A DNA stretch of 44,812 nt from Myxococcota bacterium (GCA_036338695.1 JAYZBQ010000072.1:1-44812); one strand, 5' to 3'. Counted from the stretch's first letter, positions 14,570 to 32,477 are shown. Notes: generated by a model not told the origin, from the sequence alone. Numbers and translations: made by a program.

Positions 14570-16456
14570 CTATTTGGTGGTCATGGTCCACACGCCATCC
14601 CAATCGGGCGCTGGAGGCGATGCGATGAAGGCAGCGCAGCGGTCGACATAGAGCTGCGTCACTTTGTCGCCCGGGTGAAGCTGCAGCGCCTTTTGAAAAC
14701 TCTGCTGCGCTTGATCAAACGAGCGCCCTTTGTAGTATTCGGTGCCGATATGAAAGTGGTGCAACACCGCATCGCGGTTGGGAAAGGCCTGCTCGGGGTA
14801 AGCCGCGGTCCAGTCGAGCGCTTCGTACACGGCGACCGGTTCGGTCTTGCCCTTGACCCGCAGCAGATCGACCTCCCTGAGCACATACCCCTTCTGGAGC
14901 GCCGCCACCGTGCTCTCGCTGATCAAAATCTTGGCGCCGTAGGTCTTGGTGGCGCCTTCGAGGCGTGCGGCAAGGTTCACCCCATCGCCGATGACGGTGT
15001 AATCCATCCGACGAGAACTTCCGATGTTTCCACAGACAACCTCACCGGTGTTCAGGCCGATCCCGATCTCCACGGGCGCTTTACCATCCATCAAGCGCAG
15101 CTGGTTGAAGTGCCCGAGCGCCATGTGCATGTTCAGCGCCGCAGTCAGCGCGTTGTCGGCGTCCCTGCCGGTGGCGAAGGGCGCACCGAAAACCGCCATG
15201 ATGGCGTCGCCGATGTATTTGTCGAGGATGCCGTCGTTGCTCATGATCTGATCGACCATAATACCAAAGTACTCGTTGAGCATCTGCACCGTTTCAACAG
15301 GACCCACCTGCTCTGAGAGCGAGGTGAACGAGCGGATATCCGAGAACAGCACGGTGGTCTCTTGGAGCGTCCCACCGAGCGCTGACTCACCGTCTTCGAG
15401 CAGGCGGTCAGCGACCTCCTTGGGCATGTAGCGCGCCATCGTTGACTTCAGACGCTTTTCGCCGGTGATGTCCTCGATCACCACCAACGCACCGATGCCC
15501 TCACCCTTGGCGCTCATGAGCGGCTGGACGGTGAAATTACAGTTGAGCTCCTCGGGGTCCTCGGCGGTCCCGCCCAGATGCAAACGGGTGTCGAGGTTGG
15601 AGTCTTCCCCGCCCTCTTGGATGACCTTACGCACCATCTCGGCAGCCCATGCGTTTTGGTCGACAAAGAGCGCCTCGACGCTCCTGCCCAGCGCAGCGTC
15701 CAGCGTACCCAGGCGCAGCACCGACAAGGCAGCGCGGTTGGCTTTGGTGACCCGCCCTTGTGCGTCGATCGTCACCAGCCCGTTTGCCATCGACTGCAAC
15801 ACCGCCTCGTTGAAGTTCTTGACGTTCATGACCTCTTCAAAGAGCTGCGCATTCTCAAGCGCCACAGCCGCTTGGGCGGTAAAGGCGCGCAGATTGCGCT
15901 CGTCGGCGTGATCAAAGACGACCTCTTCGACCGCCTCGCCCTCCCCGGCTTGCTTGTTCAAAACTTGGATGACGCCGATAGCTTTACCCGCCTTGGTCCG
16001 CACCTGTTGGCACAAGATGGTGCGCGTGCGGTAACCGGTCTTTTTATCGACGGCTTGATTAAAGCGGCGGTCTGCGTAGGCGTCCGTGATGTTGATGGTC
16101 TTTCCGTTTGAGAAGACGCTCCCTGCGATCCCGGCTGACGATGGAAAGCGGATGATCTGCGACTCCTCGAGCCCGAGCGCCACGTCGCTCCAGAGCTCGT
16201 CATGCGCCTCGTCGTAGAGAAACAGCGTGGCGCGATCTGCGCTCAGGATCTCGCAGACCGCCTCGATGATCTTAAGCAGCAAAGGGCGGAGCTGCAGCTC
16301 TTCGGAGATCGCCGTGGTCACCTCGAGCAAGCGCCCTTCACGCTTGTGCACAAAGGTCATACGCTCGTTCACTCGTGCGCGCAGCTGCTGCTTGAAGACG
16401 AAGAAACTAACCACCGCCGTGACCAAGACGCCGATTCCTACACCGATTCCAGTCAT
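14570..16456 (-). CDS. Class III adenylate cyclase, TM-GAF-PAS-cyclase-TPR
   Basis: N-terminal hydrophobic helix; GAF with FNQAVDKKTGYRT and NK...FDHADE; PAS; FSDIRSF, DKYIGDA, MDYTVIGDGVNLAARLE; TPR-like tail. Confidence 0.9.
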   Translation of the reverse strand: MTGIGVGIGVLVTAVVSFFVFKQQLRARVNERMTFVHKREGRLLEVTTAISEELQLRPLLLKIIEAVCEILSADRATLFLYDEAHDELWSDVALGLEESQIIRFPSSAGIAGSVFSNGKTINITDAYADRRFNQAVDKKTGYRTRTILCQQVRTKAGKAIGVIQVLNKQAGEGEAVEEVVFDHADERNLRAFTAQAAVALENAQLFEEVMNVKNFNEAVLQSMANGLVTIDAQGRVTKANRAALSVLRLGTLDAALGRSVEALFVDQNAWAAEMVRKVIQEGGEDSNLDTRLHLGGTAEDPEELNCNFTVQPLMSAKGEGIGALVVIEDITGEKRLKSTMARYMPKEVADRLLEDGESALGGTLQETTVLFSDIRSFTSLSEQVGPVETVQMLNEYFGIMVDQIMSNDGILDKYIGDAIMAVFGAPFATGRDADNALTAALNMHMALGHFNQLRLMDGKAPVEIGIGLNTGEVVCGNIGSSRRMDYTVIGDGVNLAARLEGATKTYGAKILISESTVAALQKGYVLREVDLLRVKGKTEPVAVYEALDWTAAYPEQAFPNRDAVLHHFHIGTEYYKGRSFDQAQQSFQKALQLHPGDKVTQLYVDRCAAFIASPPAPDWDGVWTMTTK

Positions 16457-22057: not shown

Positions 22058-23863
22058 TCACCCCAGCTCCTGAGCATGCGCCTGGCACATGACCCGCCAA
22101 AGCACCCGAAACGTGACCGTTGCGGGCACCTCGGAGGCTGCGATGAGCTCCTCAGCAGCCTTGGGTTGATCACGGAGCAACGACGTCATCAGCTCGATCA
22201 GCTGAAGCGCCATCGGTCCGAGCAAGCTCTCGTCGAGCTCAGCAGCTCGTCGCAACGCGCCGAGACCCTGGCGGACCTGCTCGATCTCACCGCGCTGAAC
22301 CAGCAGCCAAGCGTGCAGCAAGGCGGCTTCGAGATCGAGCCCGTCCTCAAGCTCGATCGGGAACGACTCGGAGGCCAGCTCAAGCCGCTCCCATGCTCGC
22401 TCAAGCTCACCCGACTGGAGCGCAAAATAGGCCTCGTTCAATGCGATTGCGGCGAGGTTCTCGCGGTGCTCTGCGGCGTCAAACGAGGCTCGAGCCTGGG
22501 CGTTGAGACGCTCAAAGGCGCTGCGATCGTTGCGGTCGAGGTAGTAGAGTGACCAGTTCACCTTAGCCGCCGCAGCAGCCATCACCCGGTGCAACGCCTC
22601 GTATTCCTCGACGAGCTGGCTGAGCAACTCTTCGGCTTCGGGGTCGCCTCGCTCGACGAGCAGCATCCCGAGATGCAGCGCCCTCCAACGCGCCGTCCCA
22701 CGATCTCCATGCTCCCTGAGGACCTCAAGCGACGCGCGTAAGCCCGCCTCAGCTTGTTCGAGCTTACCTTCCATCCTGTCGAGCTCAGCCAGACAGCCGC
22801 GCGCGTTGGCGGTCAAGCGAACATCATCGGTCTTCCATGACAGAACGAGGGCTTCATCAGCGGCGTTGCGCGCCTGCGCGAAGCGCTGCAGCAGCCGTAA
22901 AGTCGAACTCATTTCGATCAACCCGCGACACGTCAGCCGAGCGTCTTCGAGCTCCCTGCTGATCGAGAGCATTCGGTCGAGGTAGGGCAGCGCATCGACG
23001 GGCTGCGCGGTGTTGTACTCGACCGCCGCCTGCTCGAGCAGACACTCGGCGCTGAGCGCTGCGTCCCCAAGCCAGTCGACCACGGCGCTCATCGCACGCA
23101 GCTCAAAGCGCGCCGTGTCAAACCGTCCGCTCAATCGTCCGAGCTGGGCGCGCGCCAACAGCTGATAGGCGACCCCCTCCATCTCGCTGGTGAGGTCTGC
23201 GCGTGGGAGCGGTTTGCCGTGTTCATCGTGGGTCGCCACCTTACCGAGCCGCAGTGAAGGAAACTCGATCGGCCACCACGCCGCAGCCACCATTTGATGC
23301 ACGACCACCTTCTGCTGCATCCCACGCACCGGCGTTGGTCCGAGACAGGTCACGATCGCCCGCTCAGGCGCCCCAGCGCGCTTGAGCGTCTCCTCTGAGA
23401 CGAGCGTCTGCGCACCGTGCGCCATGTCACTGAGTCGCGCCGCAACGTTCACCGCTGCCCCAAAATAATCTGCGCGCTGGCTCAACTCGTTGATCCGCAG
23501 CTCGGCTTCACCTGCGTGAATTCCCATCCGGACCCGCAAGCCCAAGCAGCCTTTCACACCCCGCGCACGCTGCGCCTCCTCGAGGGCTTCCGGCCAGGTC
23601 AGCTTGGCGAGCGTCTGTTGGACAACATGCGCAAACCCCATCGCATCGCTTGGCTGCTCGAAGGCGAGCATAAAAGCGTCGCCTTCGGATTTGACCGCAT
23701 ACCCGTTCTGCGAGGCGCATGCTGCCTGCATCAGCGCATCGTGCATGCGCAGCGAGCGCCGCATCGCCTCAGGGACCGCCTCCCAGAGCGCCGACGAGCC
23801 CTCGATGTCGGTAAAGACAAAGGTAGGCGCACCTTGCGGCGGCTCGACCTGTCGTGAGCTCAT
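22058..23863 (-). CDS. Class III adenylate cyclase domain fused to TPR repeats
   Basis: FVFTDIEGSSALWE, VKSEGDAFM, LRVRMGIHAG and DYFGAAVNVAARL; helical TPR-like C-terminal two thirds. Confidence 0.85.
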   Translation of the reverse strand: MSSRQVEPPQGAPTFVFTDIEGSSALWEAVPEAMRRSLRMHDALMQAACASQNGYAVKSEGDAFMLAFEQPSDAMGFAHVVQQTLAKLTWPEALEEAQRARGVKGCLGLRVRMGIHAGEAELRINELSQRADYFGAAVNVAARLSDMAHGAQTLVSEETLKRAGAPERAIVTCLGPTPVRGMQQKVVVHQMVAAAWWPIEFPSLRLGKVATHDEHGKPLPRADLTSEMEGVAYQLLARAQLGRLSGRFDTARFELRAMSAVVDWLGDAALSAECLLEQAAVEYNTAQPVDALPYLDRMLSISRELEDARLTCRGLIEMSSTLRLLQRFAQARNAADEALVLSWKTDDVRLTANARGCLAELDRMEGKLEQAEAGLRASLEVLREHGDRGTARWRALHLGMLLVERGDPEAEELLSQLVEEYEALHRVMAAAAAKVNWSLYYLDRNDRSAFERLNAQARASFDAAEHRENLAAIALNEAYFALQSGELERAWERLELASESFPIELEDGLDLEAALLHAWLLVQRGEIEQVRQGLGALRRAAELDESLLGPMALQLIELMTSLLRDQPKAAEELIAASEVPATVTFRVLWRVMCQAHAQELG

Positions 23864-23979: not shown

Positions 23980-24008
23980 TTGACCGATCCGAACACGGAC
24001 TCCATAGT
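23980..24008 (+). promoter_or_regulatory. Putative sigma70-type promoter of the cyclase pair
   Basis: TTGACC (23980-23985), 17-bp spacer, CATAGT (24003-24008); GAGGAG RBS and ATG 24054 downstream. Confidence 0.55.
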
Positions 24009-24013
24009 CCGAA

Positions 24014-24029
24014 TGTGACCTATGTCACA
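24014..24029. promoter_or_regulatory. CRP/FNR-family binding site (CRP consensus)
   Basis: TGTGA-CCTATG-TCACA, a perfect TGTGA-N6-TCACA core preceded by AA, in the intergenic region between divergent cyclase genes. Confidence 0.75.
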
Positions 24030-24053: not shown

Positions 24054-25289
24054 ATGACGCAACGGGACCTCGGGGCGCTCGAGTCCAAGCTGACCGAATG
24101 GCTCCTTGATGTGAGCCGGCTCGGCGAGGCGCCGACGCAGCAGATCGCTGGCTTCATTCAGCATTTTCAGGACGCTGAGATCGACCTCATCCTGTGCTCC
24201 TCGTTGATTCGCACGCTCCATCCGCAGATTGAGCTCTTCGCTCAGCGGTGGCACCCGAGCGCCTCGTCTCGAATCGAACTCGCCCAAACAGAGCATGTCC
24301 TTGACCATCACTCGCTCCAAGTAAGCGAAGGACAGGTCGAGCTCTACACGGTGGCGCATGGTCACAGCGACGAGTCCATGTACCGCCAGAGCCCGTTTGC
24401 GCTGGCTCAAGAGACAGGGGAGCCGGTCCGTTGGCGTCGCGGGCAAGATTCAGACACCCTCAAGTTTTCCATCATCGACGACCTCGCTGCACGGGGAGCC
24501 ACCGAGTACCTCGCAATGGCGCTGCCGATCGCTGAACCCTTCGAGGCAGGGCTCAGCCTGGCGTGCAAACATCCCGGCGGCTTCCCGGTGGGCTTTGACG
24601 AGTTAATGCTCAAACTCCGCCCGCTGATTGGTCTCATTTTTGGGTTTAATGTCGAGCGCCTGTCCCTCGATGAGATCCTCAAGGCTTATCTCGGGCGAGA
24701 GCCCGCGAAACGCGTCCTCGGTGGTCAAATGCGGCGCGGCCAAATCAACAGCGTCTCGTCCGTCATCGGCTTCGTCAATCTCAAGGGTTATAAAGAGGCG
24801 ATCGGCTCCCTTGATGACGCCACGCAAAATTCGGTCTTGGACACCTTCTATCGCTCGATCTACGACGCGATCACACCGCACCATGGTGAGATCCTGAAGT
24901 TCATCGGCGAGACCGTTTTGTTCGTCTTCCCGCTCGATGAACACCGGCACCAAGCGACGTGCCAGGCTGCCCTCTCGGCAGCTCGGCATCTCCTGAATGC
25001 AGACGCTGGACTGAGCGGTCATGCGGGCTCATTTCCGGTTCAGATCGCGCTGCACTACGGTGAGGTCTTGTCCGGCAATATCGGCTCCGAGCTGCGCCTG
25101 GACTTCACCATCATGGGGCACGCCGTCAACCTCACGGCGCGCCTTCATCAGCTGCTCCCCAAGCTCAGCGAGCGCTTGATCCTCTCCAAGGAGTTCGCGT
25201 CGGCGATCCCAACCCCCACACGGACGCTCGGTTCGTTTCACCTCAAAGGAGTCAATGGCATTCAGGAGGCTTGTTCCCTTGAGCGCTAA
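24054..25289 (+). CDS. Class III cyclase-like protein with GAF-like sensor; metal-binding aspartates substituted
   Basis: RTLHPQ/SPF sensor region; GFVNLKGY (D to N) and LKFIGETV (D to E); retains RLDFT and VNLTARL. Confidence 0.85.
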   Translation: MTQRDLGALESKLTEWLLDVSRLGEAPTQQIAGFIQHFQDAEIDLILCSSLIRTLHPQIELFAQRWHPSASSRIELAQTEHVLDHHSLQVSEGQVELYTVAHGHSDESMYRQSPFALAQETGEPVRWRRGQDSDTLKFSIIDDLAARGATEYLAMALPIAEPFEAGLSLACKHPGGFPVGFDELMLKLRPLIGLIFGFNVERLSLDEILKAYLGREPAKRVLGGQMRRGQINSVSSVIGFVNLKGYKEAIGSLDDATQNSVLDTFYRSIYDAITPHHGEILKFIGETVLFVFPLDEHRHQATCQAALSAARHLLNADAGLSGHAGSFPVQIALHYGEVLSGNIGSELRLDFTIMGHAVNLTARLHQLLPKLSERLILSKEFASAIPTPTRTLGSFHLKGVNGIQEACSLER

Positions 25290-26523
25290 ACATCCCACCC
25301 AAAACGACGAGCTGTTCAGCGCCTTGCGCGATGCGCTGCTCTCGACGAGCCGTCTCTACGAGGACTCCGACGCCTACCTCCCACCGCTCGTTCAGTGCCT
25401 GCAAGCGCACGGCGTCGCCGTCAGCGGCATGAGCGTGGTCGTTCGGACCGCTCATCCCCAGCTCGAGATGTTGGTTCAGCGCTGGCACCCGAGCGCAACC
25501 GAAGAGATCTCAGTGGATGAGGTCGACACGATCGCTCAGCACTACGCTAACCAACATGCCGATGGCACCACAGAGGTCTATCTCCTCAAGCACGGTCACT
25601 CCGACCAGGCGCTCTATCAGAACAGTCCGTTTGCCGCAGTCGAGTTATCCGGTTCGGCGCAGAGCTGGCGCCTGGCTGAGCACCTCAACCCCCCACGCTT
25701 CCCGATCTTTGCGAACCTCGCCCAGCGCAGCGTGACCGAGTACTGCGTCGTCCCGGTTCGCATGCCCGAACCGTATCAGCTGATGCTCAGCATCTCGACG
25801 ACGAATTCGGGCGGCTTCCCTCCCAATTTCCTGAGCACCATGACGCAGCTCGCGCCCTACCTTCGGCTCTCGGTAGCGCACAAGCTTGAGCGGATCATGA
25901 TGACCGAGTTGCTGTCGGCTTACCTCGGCCGAGGCACGGCGCAACAGGTCGCCGCCGGGCGCATCCGGCACGGTGATCTCCAGAGCCTGGAGGCGGTGAT
26001 CGGTTTTATCGACCTGCGCGGGTTCACAGCGCTCACGCAGCAGCTTGAGAGCGCTGATCTGCTCGCGCTCATGAGCTCGTTTTACGGGGCGATTGACAAG
26101 ACGCTCACCCGCTACGGGGGTGAGATCCTCAAGTTTATCGGCGATGGTCTCCTCTTTGTCTTTCCGCAGGTCGATGAGGGCGCGGCGGTGGCGCCCAGCG
26201 CGCTTGATGCGCTCAAAGAGCTGCGTCGACGCATCGACCGAGCCAACACGAGATACCCCGAGACGCCGATTCGCTACGCCGCAGCGCTGCATAAAGGTCA
26301 AGTGCGCTATGGGAACATCGGCGCGCCTGCTCGGCTCGATTTCACGGTCATCGGCGCAACGGTCAACCGAACGGTCCGACTTCAAGAGCTTGCGTCCGAC
26401 CATGACCTCGACCTCGTCATCTCAGGATCCTTGACCGAGTCTATCGACCAGCCCAACCGCCTCCTCGGTCGCTTCACCCTCACCGGGTTCGACTCGCCGC
26501 TCGCCGTCTACACGCTCGATTAA
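25279..26523 (+). CDS. Class III adenylate cyclase with GAF-like sensor (paralog of the upstream gene)
   Basis: AGGAGG RBS before TTG 25279; GFIDLRGFT, LKFIGDG, RLDFTVIG and VNRTVRL motifs. Confidence 0.88.
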   Translation: MSAKHPTQNDELFSALRDALLSTSRLYEDSDAYLPPLVQCLQAHGVAVSGMSVVVRTAHPQLEMLVQRWHPSATEEISVDEVDTIAQHYANQHADGTTEVYLLKHGHSDQALYQNSPFAAVELSGSAQSWRLAEHLNPPRFPIFANLAQRSVTEYCVVPVRMPEPYQLMLSISTTNSGGFPPNFLSTMTQLAPYLRLSVAHKLERIMMTELLSAYLGRGTAQQVAAGRIRHGDLQSLEAVIGFIDLRGFTALTQQLESADLLALMSSFYGAIDKTLTRYGGEILKFIGDGLLFVFPQVDEGAAVAPSALDALKELRRRIDRANTRYPETPIRYAAALHKGQVRYGNIGAPARLDFTVIGATVNRTVRLQELASDHDLDLVISGSLTESIDQPNRLLGRFTLTGFDSPLAVYTLD

Positions 26524-26631
26524 CGTCGGACCGTTTTGCGGTAGCGATCGACGCAGCGTCGCGCTAGGGCGCCAGCGCATCACCGAGACACGCTACGCTG
26601 GCGCCTGTCGGTCGTGCCCATGGAGTCCACT

Positions 26632-27552
26632 GTGAGAGCGTATACGCTGCTGATCCTTGCGAGCCTCAACCTGGCGTGCGCAACAGCTCAGCGACCACCG
26701 GGCGCAGAGCTCGCCTTTGACGTGGAGCGCGTCGTCAAGGCGCAAGAACAGCTCGGCTGGAGCATCGACCGGATCGAACGCGACGCCGCGAGCGAAGACC
26801 TCTTAGCCAGCCTGTGCCGAGCCACGCCCAAAGAACGCGCAGCGGCTCATGCGCTGATCAAGCGCAACGTCAGCCAATTTGGCGCCTCGGCGAGTGAGCG
26901 CTGGCGACGCGGCGAGCGACCGCTGGCTCTGTTGCGCCCCCAGCTGACGACGGAGCGCACCCTCAGTTTGCTCGATCACGGCCTCAAGTTGATCGAGACC
27001 GGCGCCTGCCCCTTCTGGTGGGAGACCACGGACCCCTTTGTGGCGCGCCAGCAGCCGCTACCGGGTGCGTTCGTCTCGCTTGAGACCTCGGGGCGAGGCT
27101 ACGCTCAGCTCGAGGGGGACAAGTTTGGAGCAGGCGGCGGCGGCGCCTCACGGCTCGTGCTCGGGGGGCGTGTTGCGCCTGACTGGGGTCTCTTCACCAC
27201 GCTCGAGTTCGGCGGCGGCGGTCGCTTTGACTCGATCGGGCTGAATCAACCCATCGACGTGCCGGACCTCCTGATCATGCCTGCCGTGCTGATCCAGCTG
27301 CGTCGCCAGATCGGGACCTGGTACGTCTTCGCTGAATCCGGACCCATGACCTTCTTTACCAAAGAGGAGAGCGAGCTGCGCTGGGGCGCTCGAACGATCA
27401 TTGGCGGCGGCGCAGTCCGGCTACGCATCGGTCCTGGGATGCCCTTCCTCGGCGCACAATTGGGCGTGGACTGGATCGAGCCCGGCGCCTCGGGCGAGCC
27501 CATCTGGCAGGTCTTCGCCGGCGGCAACGCCGGCTACATCATCGCCTTCTAA
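26632..27552 (+). CDS. Hypothetical lipoprotein with beta-strand-rich C-terminal half
   Basis: GGAG RBS before GTG 26632; lipobox NLAC; helical N-half; Gly/aromatic strands ending GYIIAF. Confidence 0.65.
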   Translation: MRAYTLLILASLNLACATAQRPPGAELAFDVERVVKAQEQLGWSIDRIERDAASEDLLASLCRATPKERAAAHALIKRNVSQFGASASERWRRGERPLALLRPQLTTERTLSLLDHGLKLIETGACPFWWETTDPFVARQQPLPGAFVSLETSGRGYAQLEGDKFGAGGGGASRLVLGGRVAPDWGLFTTLEFGGGGRFDSIGLNQPIDVPDLLIMPAVLIQLRRQIGTWYVFAESGPMTFFTKEESELRWGARTIIGGGAVRLRIGPGMPFLGAQLGVDWIEPGASGEPIWQVFAGGNAGYIIAF

Positions 27553-28442
27553 GGGGCTTCGATGACGTCCTCGGTGCGCAGGCGCAGGGTGCTCCAAGCC
27601 ACCCGCCCCTTCTCGTCGCGCATCACCGCCCAGTAGCTGTAGTCTGCAGCGCGCTCTGCTTCGACCAGCGCCGTGTTGGCGCCCTTCTCGGCGGCCGTCA
27701 CCCGCATCACGACCCCACGCGGCGAGGTCGAGAACCAAAACCATCGGGGTTCGTCAGGGCTCGGCACACCGATCATCGGCGCCTCCACTGCGGTACGAAT
27801 CAAGCCCGGATCAAGCTCGGCTTGATCCACGGTGCGCGTCATCAACGGTGGGTGAAGGTGCGCTTGATGCACGATCGGACCCGGCCCGAGCTTGGGCGTG
27901 ATCAGGTGACGAGCGAGCCACACGGACCGGCTCAAGCGCAGCGGATCCTCGGCGCAGACCCACCCTTCCGGCGCTGGGACCTCACCGGTCTCAGTCAGGA
28001 CCTCAAGGTCCTCAGCGAGCTTGGTGGTGTCGACCTGATCGGGGAGCGCGCAGTTGACCGCTACAAAGTTGATGAGCCCGATCCCGACCGCACCCTCCGG
28101 CCAGAGGAACTGCCAGCGGTCCTCGCGTGCTCCCGTCGGTTGGTCACCGTCGAGCTCCACCTCGCTGACAGGGAGCGCAGCGAAAGCCAACTCGGGATCA
28201 TCCGGACCGCAGGCGAGGCCACCGGTCTGCGAGACACAGCCGCTCCCAAGCACCGTCAACGGGGTGTCGTCACCCGGCGCTCTCAGGGTCAGCATCGTCG
28301 CCTCAAAGATCTGCCCAGGAGCGGGCTGAACCGGCGTGTTGGCGACCGCGGCGATGCGCAGCCGGTCCACCACAGTGAAGGGCTTGAGCTCCTCACCGCA
28401 GCCGGCAAGAAGCGCGAAGCAAGCGATCCCTAAACGCTTCAT
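27549..28442 (-). CDS. Lipoprotein partner of the TonB-dependent receptor
   Basis: Lipobox LAGC; LRIAAV and WAVMRDEKGRVAW segments; start codon directly abuts the receptor stop codon. Confidence 0.7.
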   Translation of the reverse strand: MKRLGIACFALLAGCGEELKPFTVVDRLRIAAVANTPVQPAPGQIFEATMLTLRAPGDDTPLTVLGSGCVSQTGGLACGPDDPELAFAALPVSEVELDGDQPTGAREDRWQFLWPEGAVGIGLINFVAVNCALPDQVDTTKLAEDLEVLTETGEVPAPEGWVCAEDPLRLSRSVWLARHLITPKLGPGPIVHQAHLHPPLMTRTVDQAELDPGLIRTAVEAPMIGVPSPDEPRWFWFSTSPRGVVMRVTAAEKGANTALVEAERAADYSYWAVMRDEKGRVAWSTLRLRTEDVIEAP

Positions 28443-31163
28443 CTAAAACACTCCCTTGATCCCAAAGCTCGGGATCAGCGGTAACCCGAAGGTATACTCT
28501 TGCTCGGTGAAGTCCGTGTTGTAGCTCACCCCTTCGATGTTTTGACGGTTGGTGGCGTTCTGCAGATCCAGATAGAGCTCAAGCCGCCAGCCTGGGCGCA
28601 GAATTTTGTAATCAGCCCGGACGTCAAGCTGCCAGAACGCGGGGGGGCGGTTGGAGAAAGGCTCCCCTGCGATCGGGATGTACGTTCCGGTGCGGGTGTC
28701 AAAGACGCTCCCTAGGTTGGGTGTCTCGGGGTTCGCCGAGGCGTAGCGGTAGCGGAAGCCTGTCGAGAAACGGGTCGTCCATTTATAGCTCGCCACTGCG
28801 GTAAAAACATGGGTCTGATCAAAGCTAAACAGGCGCCAGTCGGCGTCCTCTCGCTCCTGACGTTCGGAGCGCGACAGAGTGTACGCCAAAAATCCGCTGA
28901 CGGGGTAATCCGCCTTACGCTGACGGATCAGGAGCTCGAGCCCATAGCCCCTCATCAACCCAACGTTCGCCAGGCCACCAACACCCTGCGTGCCCGCTGC
29001 CTCGTCTTGCTCGACGGCGTTCCCCACGGCGTCGAGCACTCGCTTGCCGAACACCGAGCTCTCCACCGAGAACCCATTGGGGTTGGTGAACCCACCGCCG
29101 ACCTGCACGTGACCTGCGTGCTCCCAAAATAGCTGGGGGTTACCAAAAGGCGCAACGGTCTCGTCAGGGCGAGGCGGCTGGCTGTACACACCCAAGCCGA
29201 AGCGTAGGTCAAACCGCTTATCCTTGAGGAAGCGCTTGGTCAGGAAACGCGGCTGGGGATAGACCGCCCAGTTGGCGCCGTCGGTGTCGACCCGAAACCC
29301 GAGCAGGCTCTCCCACAACCCCTGCTTGAGCCGAAGCTCACTGTAAGCCCCCGGTCGAAAGAACACTCCAGGCGAGTCGAACTCGGTGGTCTCGGTGCGC
29401 GCAAAACTGCCAGGTCCCGAACCCTCCTGAGGTCGTCCGCTCGCCTTTCCAAAGACGTTGTACGTGGTTTGTTGATGGTCCACGCCGACGACCCAATCCA
29501 TCGACTCGGAGAGCTTGCGCTGCGCCTCGTGACGCCAACTCTTACGATAGGTCTCGACGGTGAGCTTGAAGGCTTGCGCCAGGTTCACGTCAAAGGACTC
29601 CAGCTGGATGTTGATGGAGCTCTTGTGCCGCCAATCCCCCACCCGAAAAGAGGCGTACGGGCGGATCCGGTGGAACATCGTCAGCGTCGAGATGTCGCCG
29701 CGCACCGACGGGTCAAAGTCAGGCGGCTGCTCGATCGCGAACTTCACCTTGTCCAGCGCCCCTTGGTACACGAAGCCCAGGCGCCCCGTCCCGGTCAGCT
29801 TTCGGTCCCACTTCAAGAAGTAGTCATAGAACCGCGGCGCCACCGTGAAGTCGAGCGGGAGCACATCGGAGACTAAGGGCAGGACCGCGTCGATCCAGCT
29901 GCGCCGAAAGCTCATCCACAGCATATCATTCTTGCCCACAGGGCCTGCCGCAAATACGCTGCCGGCGTACACGTCGGTCTGGATCCGCCTCGTCCACTCT
30001 TCGGCGTGCTTGTCGCGTGTGGTCACCTCGACCACCCCGCCGTGGGACCGACCGAAGCGTGCGCTAAAGTTGCTCGGGACAAAGTCGAGGAGCTCGACGG
30101 TCTCGTTCTCGACGACCCCCTGACCGGTCAGGTGATACAAGAGCGAGGACCGAAACCCGTCGATCATGAACAAGCTGTCGTCAGGCTCCGAGCCGCGGAT
30201 GATGATGAGCGGCGATAACCCTGGGGGGCGCGCCACGCCGGGGAGGGACTGCACGGCTCGAACCACGTCACCGCCGGTACCCGGGATGTCTTCGAGCTCT
30301 TCGCGCGTCAGCCGGACGCGCGTCACCTCACGGCTCGGGCCGCGTCCACGGATGGTCGTCGAGAACCGGTTCACCCGTGTGGGTTCAAGATCAACAGGAA
30401 GCGACTGCGCCTCCTTCGCCGCCAGGGTGACCTGACCCGTCTTCGCTTTGTAGCCGGAAAAGGACGCCGCCCACGCGTAGTCACCCGCCGTCAGATCGGG
30501 GCATCGGGCGCGCCCACGCGCTTGGCTGAGCACCTCGCAGACCACGTCCTCGCCTTGCGTGACTTGGAGGCTCACCCCGACGAGCTTGAGCCCAGAGCCG
30601 AGCTCGCGGAACTGAAACGCCAAGGAGGCGTCCCCCTTCGCCTTCTCAGGCTCAGCCTGCGGCTCCTCTTTGGGCGCCTCAACCGCCAGGATCGGCGCAA
30701 GGGCATCCACCAAGGCAGCCATCCCCTCACCCAGGCGGACCTCCCACCCGCTGACGTCGCATCCCGGGCATTGCAGATCGAGACTCGCCAAGCCTGCGAG
30801 CTCTTGTTCATCTAGGACTTGAATCGAGAGCACGTCAGCGACCGCCCGGTCGATAAACAACGCATAGCGTTTCTTGGACGTACGCGCGGCGCGCCGAAAC
30901 TCGGCTCGGGTCAGCGCCGGGCGCGTGTCGAGGGTTGCTCCGGGCAGCTTCTTGAGCCAGCGAGCGAGCTTCGCCTCGATCTGCTGCCGACTCAGCGGGT
31001 GATCACCCGCCTCGGCGACGCCCACGTTCCAGTCCGGTGACCAGACGACCTCGTCCTGAACGGCAGCAGGCTCGGCGACCTGAGCGGGTGCTGCGGTGCC
31101 TGTACCTTGAGGAGCCGCTTGCCCAAGCACCAACGTGACCATGACTGCGAAGATGGGGGTCAT
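28443..31163 (-). CDS. TonB-dependent receptor with N-terminal extension and carboxypeptidase-regulatory-like domain
   Basis: Plug IPGTGGDVVRAVQSLPGV...IRGS...FSARFGR; barrel AYTLSRSER, FDQTH, QLDVRAD, YLDLQNATN; C-terminal PSFGIKGVF. Confidence 0.92.
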   Translation of the reverse strand: MTPIFAVMVTLVLGQAAPQGTGTAAPAQVAEPAAVQDEVVWSPDWNVGVAEAGDHPLSRQQIEAKLARWLKKLPGATLDTRPALTRAEFRRAARTSKKRYALFIDRAVADVLSIQVLDEQELAGLASLDLQCPGCDVSGWEVRLGEGMAALVDALAPILAVEAPKEEPQAEPEKAKGDASLAFQFRELGSGLKLVGVSLQVTQGEDVVCEVLSQARGRARCPDLTAGDYAWAASFSGYKAKTGQVTLAAKEAQSLPVDLEPTRVNRFSTTIRGRGPSREVTRVRLTREELEDIPGTGGDVVRAVQSLPGVARPPGLSPLIIIRGSEPDDSLFMIDGFRSSLLYHLTGQGVVENETVELLDFVPSNFSARFGRSHGGVVEVTTRDKHAEEWTRRIQTDVYAGSVFAAGPVGKNDMLWMSFRRSWIDAVLPLVSDVLPLDFTVAPRFYDYFLKWDRKLTGTGRLGFVYQGALDKVKFAIEQPPDFDPSVRGDISTLTMFHRIRPYASFRVGDWRHKSSINIQLESFDVNLAQAFKLTVETYRKSWRHEAQRKLSESMDWVVGVDHQQTTYNVFGKASGRPQEGSGPGSFARTETTEFDSPGVFFRPGAYSELRLKQGLWESLLGFRVDTDGANWAVYPQPRFLTKRFLKDKRFDLRFGLGVYSQPPRPDETVAPFGNPQLFWEHAGHVQVGGGFTNPNGFSVESSVFGKRVLDAVGNAVEQDEAAGTQGVGGLANVGLMRGYGLELLIRQRKADYPVSGFLAYTLSRSERQEREDADWRLFSFDQTHVFTAVASYKWTTRFSTGFRYRYASANPETPNLGSVFDTRTGTYIPIAGEPFSNRPPAFWQLDVRADYKILRPGWRLELYLDLQNATNRQNIEGVSYNTDFTEQEYTFGLPLIPSFGIKGVF

Positions 31164-31324
31164 TCATTTCACCGAACAAAAAGGGCGTTGCGACCGAAAA
31201 TCGACCACCGACGACAAAACTGTGACCCATACAAACGACCATTTCAAGCAATTTGGCATGTTCAGTGCACCGAGCAAGCGGCTAAACGACCAATCCGGCC
31301 ACGCAAACCAACTAAATCGACTAT

Positions 31325-31340
31325 TGAAAAATATTTTTCA
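31325..31340. promoter_or_regulatory. Perfect 16-bp palindrome, candidate operator
   Basis: TGAAAAATATTTTTCA equals its own reverse complement; lies in the AT-rich receptor/alkB divergent intergenic region. Confidence 0.55.
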
Positions 31341-31365
31341 CGATCGTGGTTGCGCCGAACGCTCA

Positions 31366-31388
31366 ACCGTTTTATATAACGGTCGTTA
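31366..31388. promoter_or_regulatory. Overlapping inverted repeats, candidate TetR operator
   Basis: ACCGTT-N6-AACGGT (31366-31383) and TAACG-GT-CGTTA (31377-31388), just upstream of the alkB RBS. Confidence 0.5.
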
Positions 31389-31403
31389 CAGAAAGGCACT
31401 CCA

Positions 31404-32477
31404 GTGAATCCAGCGCTCTATTTGACCGTCCTCGTGATCCCTGTCGCTACGCTCATCGGCTTCGCTGAAGGTGGCTTGATGACCTGGGCGTCGCCGCTCC
31501 TGATCTTCGGCCTGCTCCCGTTCGCAGAGTGGGTGTTGCCCGAACCCAAGACCAACGCCACCGCGGCGCTGCCGGTCGCAGAACTCAAAGGCTGGCGCTT
31601 TGACGTCCCCATCTACGTCGCCTCCCTTCTCCACCTGGCGACGCTGGGTGTCTTCTTTCGCACCATCACGACGTTCAGCGGCTGGGAGCTCGTGGGGTTG
31701 ATCGTGTCGATGGGGATCAGCTGCGGCGCCCTAGCGATTAACATCGGTCACGAGCTCGGGCATCGCAAAGGAGACTGGGAGCAGGGGTTTGCGAAGATTC
31801 TGCTCTCCACCTCGCTCTATGCCCACTTCTTCATCGAGCACAACCGAGGACACCACATCCGCGCCGCAACGCACGACGATCCGGCGACGGCGCGCCGGGG
31901 CGAGTGGGTGTTCACCTTCTGGTTCCGGAGCGGCTTGGGCGGCTGGCTCAACGCCTGGCGCCTTGAGCACACCCGCCTGTCGCGTCGCAAGCAACGGGTG
32001 ATCTCGTGGAAAAACGAGATGGTGCGCTGGCAGGCCGGTCAGGTCGCTGGGCTTGCGCTTATCGGCGCAGCGGGCGGTCTGACCGTCCTAGGCTACTTCG
32101 TCATCGCCGCATTCGGCGGCGCCATGTTGCTCGAAACCGTCAACTACCTTGAGCACTATGGTCTCAGCCGAACGTTACGCGCCAACGGGCGCCCGGAGCC
32201 GGTCACCCCGGCTCATTCGTGGAACTCGAACGCGATCCTCGGCCGGCTGCTCCTCTTTGAACTCAGCCGTCACAGCGACCACCACGCCAACCCCCGGCGG
32301 GCTTACGCGGCGCTGCGTCACTTTGACGAGTCACCGCAGCTTCCAACCGGTTACCCCGGGATGATCCTCATGGCGCTGGTCCCGCCGCTGTTCATTGCGG
32401 TCATGGATTCGCGCCTGGACGGGATGACCACCGCCGCCCCTTCCCTCGAGACCGCAAGCGCAACCGCCCATGCCTAA
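31404..32477 (+). CDS. alkB: Alkane 1-monooxygenase (membrane non-heme di-iron)
   Basis: All four AlkB histidine motifs: HELGH, EHNRGHH, NYLEHYGL and LSRHSDHHA; also HSWN and PQLPTGY; multiple TM helices. Confidence 0.92.
   Translation: MNPALYLTVLVIPVATLIGFAEGGLMTWASPLLIFGLLPFAEWVLPEPKTNATAALPVAELKGWRFDVPIYVASLLHLATLGVFFRTITTFSGWELVGLIVSMGISCGALAINIGHELGHRKGDWEQGFAKILLSTSLYAHFFIEHNRGHHIRAATHDDPATARRGEWVFTFWFRSGLGGWLNAWRLEHTRLSRRKQRVISWKNEMVRWQAGQVAGLALIGAAGGLTVLGYFVIAAFGGAMLLETVNYLEHYGLSRTLRANGRPEPVTPAHSWNSNAILGRLLLFELSRHSDHHANPRRAYAALRHFDESPQLPTGYPGMILMALVPPLFIAVMDSRLDGMTTAAPSLETASATAHA

Follow-up and report, generated by a model that had tools for sequence, protein, structure and literature searches.

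Reciprocal and incomplete loss of catalytic half-sites in a tandem adenylyl cyclase gene pair of an uncultured Myxococcota family

The 44,812-nucleotide (nt) stretch of a Myxococcota bacterium genome analysed here (GCA_036338695.1, JAYZBQ010000072.1:1-44812; hereafter the window) is contig C72 of genome G000 (3.36 Mb, 93.6% complete), and near-identical DNA was found in marine and seawater metagenome runs, with no RNA run among those listed. The window carries two overlapping genes, copy 1 and copy 2, which encode paralogous proteins with an N-terminal sensor, GAF-like by predicted structure, and a nucleotide cyclase domain of class III. Catalytic residues have been lost from opposite halves of the active site in the two copies, heavily in copy 1 and partly in copy 2, and with moderate confidence we favour the view that the two proteins form a heterodimer with one main active site that makes cyclic AMP (cAMP). 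The features on which this view rests are as follows:

24054–25289, plus strand: copy 1, 411 amino acids (aa); GAF-like domain (approximately residues 6–180), linker helix (181–213) and cyclase domain of class IIIb; expected to donate the adenine/transition-state (C2-/beta-like) half
24777–24779, plus strand: copy 1 Asn242 (codon AAT), in place of the first metal-binding Asp, motif FVNLKG
24789–24794, plus strand: copy 1 Tyr246-Lys247, replacing Phe-Thr of the GFT phosphate loop, which reads GYK
24909–24911, plus strand: copy 1 Glu286 (codon GAG), in place of the second metal-binding Asp, motif IGETV
25245–25247, plus strand: copy 1 Lys398, the phosphate-binding Lys of the LKG motif, present in 11/11 copy-1 orthologues
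25264–25289, plus strand: junction, with AGGAGG embedded in copy 1's conserved Q-E-A codons, the TTG start at 25279 and the end of the copy 1 stop codon at 25289
25279–26523, plus strand: copy 2, 414 aa from a probable TTG start; predicted donor of the metal/phosphate (C1-/alpha-like) half
26482–26484, plus strand: copy 2 Thr410 at the family's phosphate-binding Lys position (LKG motif); the Lys is gone in 9/11 copy-2 orthologues

The open reading frames (24054–25289 and, from ATG 25255, 25255–26523) lie on the same strand, and their products are 36% identical across 403 columns. Both exceed the Pfam cut-off for PF00211 (21.9 bits) with 30.5 and 36.8 bits, respectively, and both contain the motifs QRWHPSA and GEILKFIG, in agreement with a preliminary description of this DNA as two overlapping, co-oriented paralogs with a common sensor and class III layout. 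That description also paired a pseudo-cyclase lacking only its metal-binding Asp pair with an intact cyclase, a picture that fails in its details, since residues are lost reciprocally and the GFT phosphate loop is among them. Copy 2 residues are numbered below according to the 422-aa form from ATG 25255.

In C1/C2- and alpha/beta-type enzymes, the Asp pair is contributed by C1 or alpha, and the residues K938, D1018, N1025, R1029 and K1065 by C2 or beta (PMC3591389; PMC7289801), with the phosphate loop located between strand beta1b and helix alpha1 (PMC2576301). A self-sufficient homodimeric class III cyclase needs the two metal-binding Asp and the GFT loop, and copy 1 has neither: N242 and E286 stand at the Asp positions, confirming the earlier observation, and the loop is replaced by GYK. 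By alignment to CyaB and bPAC, we take the loop Phe-Thr to belong to the Asp side, the Lys of the LKG motif to be the K1065 equivalent, and the small residue preceding the catalytic Arg to line the ribose site. Copy 1 retains K282, T352, N359, R363 and K398, and the transition-state Asn and Arg, correctly reported as kept, are present in 11/11 copy-1 orthologues. The adenine-specifying pair had been given as Lys/Asp, of which the Lys stands, but the second residue is a Thr (T352 in copy 1, T364 in copy 2) and not the Asp of RLDFT. The Thr position aligns with a Thr in both CyaB and bPAC, and in an FDVWG-type cyclase from the same genome with the specificity Asp, and these alignments rule out the RLDFT residue. 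The Lys/Thr pair, which we take to define class IIIb, occurs in 11/11 orthologues of each copy.

Assembly or sequencing errors do not account for N242 and E286, because metagenome contigs, relatives and cluster members share them. Contigs of the metagenome runs X1 and X3 (one of which may be the source sample) span both codons without a difference, and copy 1 of G001 and G003 has the identical Asn/Glu pair. Among the 14 other members of the copy 1 90% cluster, Asn242 is found in 14/14 and Glu286 in the 13/13 reaching that site; the full K/T/N/A/R/K set is present in ten members, one is a fragment and three have frame-shifted tails. By comparison, both Asp are present in all 215 background members of the family.

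Copy 2 retains the metal/phosphate side (D253, F257-T258 and D297) as well as K293, T364, N371 and R375. The earlier assessment of copy 2 as intact thus holds for the six core residues, and is rejected in part owing to T410, at the position of the phosphate-binding Lys, and V374, a Val at the small residue preceding the catalytic Arg, both of which depart from the family.

The same division runs through 11 orthologues of each copy. Lesions on the metal/phosphate side were found in 11/11 copy-1 and 0/11 copy-2 orthologues (background 5/215, single-copy relatives 0/4), and lesions on the adenine/transition-state side in 0/11 copy-1 and 10/11 copy-2 orthologues (background 22/215, single-copy relatives 0/4). 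In copy 1, the loop Phe and Thr are present in 0/11, the first Asp in 3/11, the second in 4/11, both in 2/11 and neither in 6/11 (P0009 has Lys at the first Asp position), whereas K, T, N, R and the phosphate Lys are present in 11/11. The D-to-N and D-to-E changes of the window are therefore conserved in part only, with the Asn/Glu pair in G000, G001 and G003, both Asp in the two genus g2 orthologues and a single Asp in three others. In copy 2, D-L-R-G-F-T and G-D are present in 11/11, as are K, T and R, whereas the phosphate Lys is found in 2/11, the Asn in 9/11 (replaced by His in P0130 and by Ser in G005, the latter fixed in 9/9 cluster members) and Val at the small residue in 8/11. These copy 2 lesions are lineage-specific: Lys to Thr, Ser or Pro together with Ala to Val, Asn to His together with Lys to Glu (P0130), and Asn to Ser (G005). 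Placed on the tree, the pattern amounts to approximately four separate changes per copy, every one on the expected side. The counts exclude L089 (a duplicate of G005), P0123 (a copy 2 allele) and P0012, which is garbled and frame-shifted; the latter is a database protein resembling a copy 1–copy 2 fusion, garbled throughout and probably affected by indel errors.

The tandem pair is found in five of the six genomes of one family, namely G000, G001 and G003 (genus g1) and G004 and G005 (genus g2), and is adjacent with an overlapped junction in all five. The sixth, same-genus genome G002 (85% complete, 690 contigs) yielded a lone, long-branched gene with all sites intact, and the pair was not found there. 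This gene (G002:C665, L086:3023-4309; P0268, P0269) belongs to the subfamily with a hairpin insert. Among 401 genomes of the phylum, with four candidates scored per genome, no pair was detected outside the family, and close single-copy relatives in G045, G050 and G121 are all intact. Across the searches made, which may miss more distant pairs, a metagenome scan covering 80 loci returned one further pair only (L089, the same as that of G005), a genome_contigs scan (four loci) gave no new pair, a viral scan one distant single gene, and a third protein search no new copy-2 lineage. In a quick, non-bootstrapped tree of 60 sequences, including 20 of the 215 background proteins, each copy forms one clade (Shimodaira–Hasegawa-like approximate likelihood ratio test, 99), and the two show mirrored branching inside a clade that also holds the single-copy genes.

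Both copies are under purifying selection. Within genera, the nonsynonymous divergence (dN) of copy 1 is 0.12–0.44 at a synonymous divergence (dS) of about 2–2.8 or saturated (dN and dS of 0.117 and 2.0 for G004–G005, and 0.438 and 2.8 for G000–G001), similar to dN of copy 2 (0.16–0.39) and of two neighbouring genes (0.18–0.30). Within genera, the cyclase domain of copy 1 is conserved as much as or more than its sensor.

The gene junction is conserved as well. Copy 2 probably starts at TTG 25279 rather than at ATG 25255: the TTG is located 9 nt past an AGGAGG, the resulting overlap with copy 1 is 11 nt, and 9/15 members of the copy 2 cluster were called at 414 aa. The overlap, counted from the copy 2 start to the last base of the copy 1 stop codon, is 8 or 11 nt in 5/5 genomes with the pair, and AGGAGG or AAGAGG is found 9–12 nt upstream of this start within the conserved Q-E-A codons. 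This overlapped Shine-Dalgarno junction leads us to predict translational coupling of the two genes.

In the structural model of copy 1 (predicted local distance difference test (pLDDT) 93.3), an N-terminal domain is followed by a 33-residue helix (181–213) and the cyclase domain; the model matches CyaB, CyaC and bPAC with template modelling (TM) scores of 0.77–0.80 by target. We call the sensor GAF-like because a model of residues 1–214 (pLDDT 90.6) best matched the PDE5A GAF domain (E 5.8e-5, TM 0.56), followed by other GAF and LuxR-type ligand domains. A Pfam scan gave no GAF match, and the Atlas listed unnamed clusters first, with GAF clusters at 0.88 serving as a lead only. The domain contains an added beta-hairpin (approximately residues 68–101) typical of the subfamily to which the pair belongs.

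The full-length heterodimer folded with ATP and Mg using ESMFold2 scored 0.75, compared to 0.00 for the best of three controls; this mark was reached by 116/157 solved pairs and 2/215 mismatched pairs. Between the heterodimer runs, at least 77% of contacts agree, the partner pLDDT is at least 81, and the modelled interface spans the linker helices and cyclase domains. Of the hetero- versus homodimer modelling proposed earlier, these runs cover the heterodimer. Copy-specific fixed residues of the linker helices at the modelled interface include G193/R204, L191/Y202 and F198/H209, and differences fixed between the copies are over-represented at this predicted interface relative to all columns (7/82 vs. 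8/319, p 0.018), though not relative to conserved columns, as detailed below.

From these observations we infer dimer partner choice, activity and ligands. The pair would have originated from duplicated GAF-like/class IIIb adenylyl cyclases that lost opposite catalytic halves. At the main site, both metal-binding Asp and the GFT phosphate loop would come from copy 2, whereas the Lys/Thr that read the adenine, the Asn/Arg of the transition state and the phosphate Lys would come from copy 1. The mirror site, in which Asn/Glu of copy 1 face the eroded half of copy 2, would have no activity or a regulatory role. With translational coupling, the subunits would be made in a 1:1 ratio, and the paired linker helices would relay the signals of the two diverged GAF-like domains. 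Copy 1 homodimers should be inactive and copy 2 homodimers may retain some activity, so that pairing with the other copy is probably a preference and not a strict requirement. The asymmetric heterodimer of the preliminary description is partly supported, in amended form: the complete K/T/N/R/K set of copy 1 (11/11), the one-sided erosion of copy 2, the pair and its junction conserved in five genomes, the low dN/dS and the predicted complex argue for it, but the loss is reciprocal and pairing may not be obligate. One of the refuting observations named in that description, Asp residues kept in copy-1 orthologues, applies in part (both Asp in 2/11, one in 3/11), although the loop Thr is absent from all 11.

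More tentatively, and with somewhat less than even confidence, the pair may represent a natural two-gene bacterial adenylyl cyclase midway between a homodimer and an obligate heterodimer, with the mirror site acting as an allosteric pocket and two GAF-like sensors gating one active site. As part of this tentative interpretation, living relatives may display the successive steps, from intact single genes through loss of the loop alone in copy 1 (genus g2) to loss of one and then both Asp, accompanied by three separate routes of erosion in copy 2.

Several points weigh against the heterodimer with one main site. The copy 2 in the window keeps all six core residues, copy 2 of G004 is free of lesions at all scored sites, and copy 1 of G004 and G005 (genus g2) keeps both Asp. 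The phosphate Lys is variable in the family (Lys or Arg in 187/215, His in 16, other residues in 12), another cyclase of G000 has Pro at this position, and Rv1900c works with His in place of Asn, so that loss of the Asn can be tolerated (PMC4886424). Three members of the copy 1 cluster have frame-shifted tails, probably assembly indels. The scored positions and allowed residues were picked after viewing the alignment, and the rows are kin, some of them near-identical; the reciprocal distribution is therefore a pattern and not a test with a p-value. The heterodimer alone was folded, and since similar class III dimers have been solved many times, the score of 0.75 reflects likeness to such complexes and not partner preference. 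The interface enrichment fails relative to conserved columns (7/40 vs. 8/71, p 0.39), and isolated catalytic domains of soluble guanylyl cyclase (sGC) pair promiscuously (PMC3591389).

The main alternative, which we regard as rather unlikely, is that copy 2 is an active homodimer, and copy 1 a regulatory pseudo-cyclase that binds it and, by halving or poisoning sites, damps or gates it according to its own GAF ligand, the heterodimer being a regulated state and not the principal enzyme. The residues D, K, D, T, N and R are present in 9/11 copy-2 orthologues, G004 retains all scored sites, the loss of Asn can be tolerated, and gene linkage and predicted binding fit this scenario equally well. 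It leaves unexplained, however, why the variable phosphate Lys and the Asn/Arg are retained in 11/11 copy-1 orthologues, and why the lesions of copy 2 are confined to the half kept by copy 1.

It is improbable that copy 1 acts separately as a homodimer without catalysis, using its retained adenine half to bind ATP or cAMP and signalling to some other partner, with copy 2 as an ordinary cyclase with drifted peripheral residues. The retained adenine-binding residues and purifying selection of copy 1 and the variability of the Lys position in the family are compatible with this explanation, but copy 1 adjoins copy 2 in all five genomes with readable DNA, the junction is conserved and the erosion of copy 2 is one-sided. 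Still less probable are two independent, weakly or differently active cyclases, of which copy 1 turns over its substrate with Asn/Glu (e.g. using Mn2+), something that the g2 forms retaining both Asp might do as well. Both Asp in copy 1 of G004 and G005 and one Asp in three further orthologues agree with this idea, whereas the invariance of both Asp in the 215 background members, the absence of the loop Thr and Phe from all 11 copy-1 orthologues and the Lys at the first Asp position of P0009 speak against it.

Finally, the idea that copy 1 is a duplicate in decay is very improbable and already largely refuted: 4/5 of its contig-level variants are residue-changing and three cluster members have frame-shifted tails, but the contig-level variants of copy 2 are likewise mostly residue-changing (3/4) and do not separate the copies, full-length frames persist across two genera at 40–82% identity with saturated dS, and copy 1 has no C2-side lesion. 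The neutral decay considered in the preliminary description was thus rejected on dN/dS, the one-sided lesions and a conservation similar to that of copy 2.

Two further features precede copy 1:

23980–24008, plus strand: sigma70-like promoter match TTGACC-17-CATAGT directly upstream of the CRP-type box; a consensus match only (one found vs. 0.5 expected by chance)
24014–24029, no strand assigned: perfect CRP-type palindrome TGTGA-N6-TCACA, ending 25 nt upstream of the copy 1 start codon

A perfect box of this type is expected 0.01 times in the window (0.80 times if one mismatch is allowed), and the genome contains three perfect sites, all intergenic, compared to ~0.7 expected (the others at C92:23833 and C98:913). 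G000 encodes one CRP-like protein (C15, L170:946-1740) with a cAMP-pocket motif and an SRETISR recognition helix, and orthologues of this regulator are present in G001, G004 and G005. The box itself is not conserved: within 400 nt upstream, the best matches in G001, G003, G004 and G005 have 3, 2, 4 and 2 mismatches, respectively, which does not support it as a conserved feature. Feedback repression by cAMP via this box is plausible for the G000 species only, and the box could also serve the divergent cyclase gene described next.

In total, 16 PF00211 matches were identified in G000, four of them inside the window. The divergent gene (22058–23863, minus strand) encodes a class III cyclase with a TPR-like C-terminus in which both Asp, K, N and R are present, and it adjoins the pair in G001 as well (62% identity). 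The fourth cyclase of the window (14570–16456, minus strand) has a GAF-PAS-cyclase architecture with all scored residues intact. Downstream of the pair, the region 26614–32477 contains a lipoprotein-like gene, an uncharacterized gene, a TonB-dependent receptor and a fatty acid desaturase, a block that shows synteny with the pair in both G001 and G003 and does not lie within the stretches read for G004 or G005. Elsewhere in G000, two long cyclase-domain proteins have degenerate sites (C48:419810-420346, second Asp to Gly, and C98:41005-41538, Lys to Arg with the catalytic Arg replaced). G004:C209 (L053:3-2537) encodes a second tandem, whose two GAF-like cyclases belong to different subfamilies and both retain every scored residue; it is a natural control for tandem arrangement in which no half-site has been lost.

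If the proposed heterodimer is real, the route from a homodimer to the asymmetry of C1/C2- or sGC-type enzymes would become directly testable in a soluble, easily expressed two-gene bacterial pair with natural intermediates between intact and half-split, including which lesion came first, at which point pairing turns obligate and how a dead site is used. It would also be a warning that annotation gene by gene mistakes members of such pairs for broken or independent cyclases. The restriction of the pair to a single uncultured family limits the impact. Bacterial class III adenylyl cyclases have been described as homodimers, with complementary half-sites arising with the eukaryotic enzymes (PMC4821796, PMC9552081), and no natural two-gene bacterial heterodimeric cyclase was found by title or abstract opening in the literature covered (PMC2447327 by abstract, subscription reviews outside the scope). 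What is new in this case, which is of separate origin, is the graded series of intermediates.

Among known systems, animal sGC alpha/beta also consists of two genes from one duplication, each encoding a sensor-type domain that a helical linker joins to a class III domain, and its active-site residues are split between the subunits to give one active and one pseudosymmetric site (PMC3591389). In contrast, the pair described here is bacterial, has Lys/Thr (ATP-type, class IIIb) instead of Glu/Cys and GAF-like instead of H-NOX/PAS domains, is encoded by overlapping adjacent genes, shows an incomplete split on the copy 2 side and originated independently from a single-copy bacterial subfamily. Mammalian membrane adenylyl cyclases (1CJK/1CJU) divide the work similarly, one domain carrying the Asp pair together with the phosphate loop and the other K/D(T)/N/R/K, but C1 and C2 are fused in one class IIIa membrane protein, whereas here two soluble class IIIb chains are involved and copy 2 mostly keeps Asn/Arg. 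The closest solved structures by sequence and fold are homodimeric bacterial class IIIb enzymes with the same Lys/Thr pair (CyaB 3R5G, bPAC, OaPAC and CyaC), and the widespread GAF-like cyclase family of Proteobacteria and Myxococcota (the 215 full-length background members) has the same architecture; these enzymes keep both halves, whereas the pair has lost opposite halves and has an added beta-hairpin. In Mycobacterium tuberculosis Rv1625c, an engineered Asp-less cyclase (D300A) is rescued in trans by an Arg-less one (R376A; PMC4821796), although these are artificial point mutants of one gene and not natural paralogues. Lastly, the fungal rhodopsin-guanylyl cyclases RGC1/2 and NeoR are likewise encoded separately and bring two different sensors together in a single cyclase dimer (PMC8815786), but they are eukaryotic, use membrane rhodopsin sensors and retain all catalytic residues in RGC1/2.

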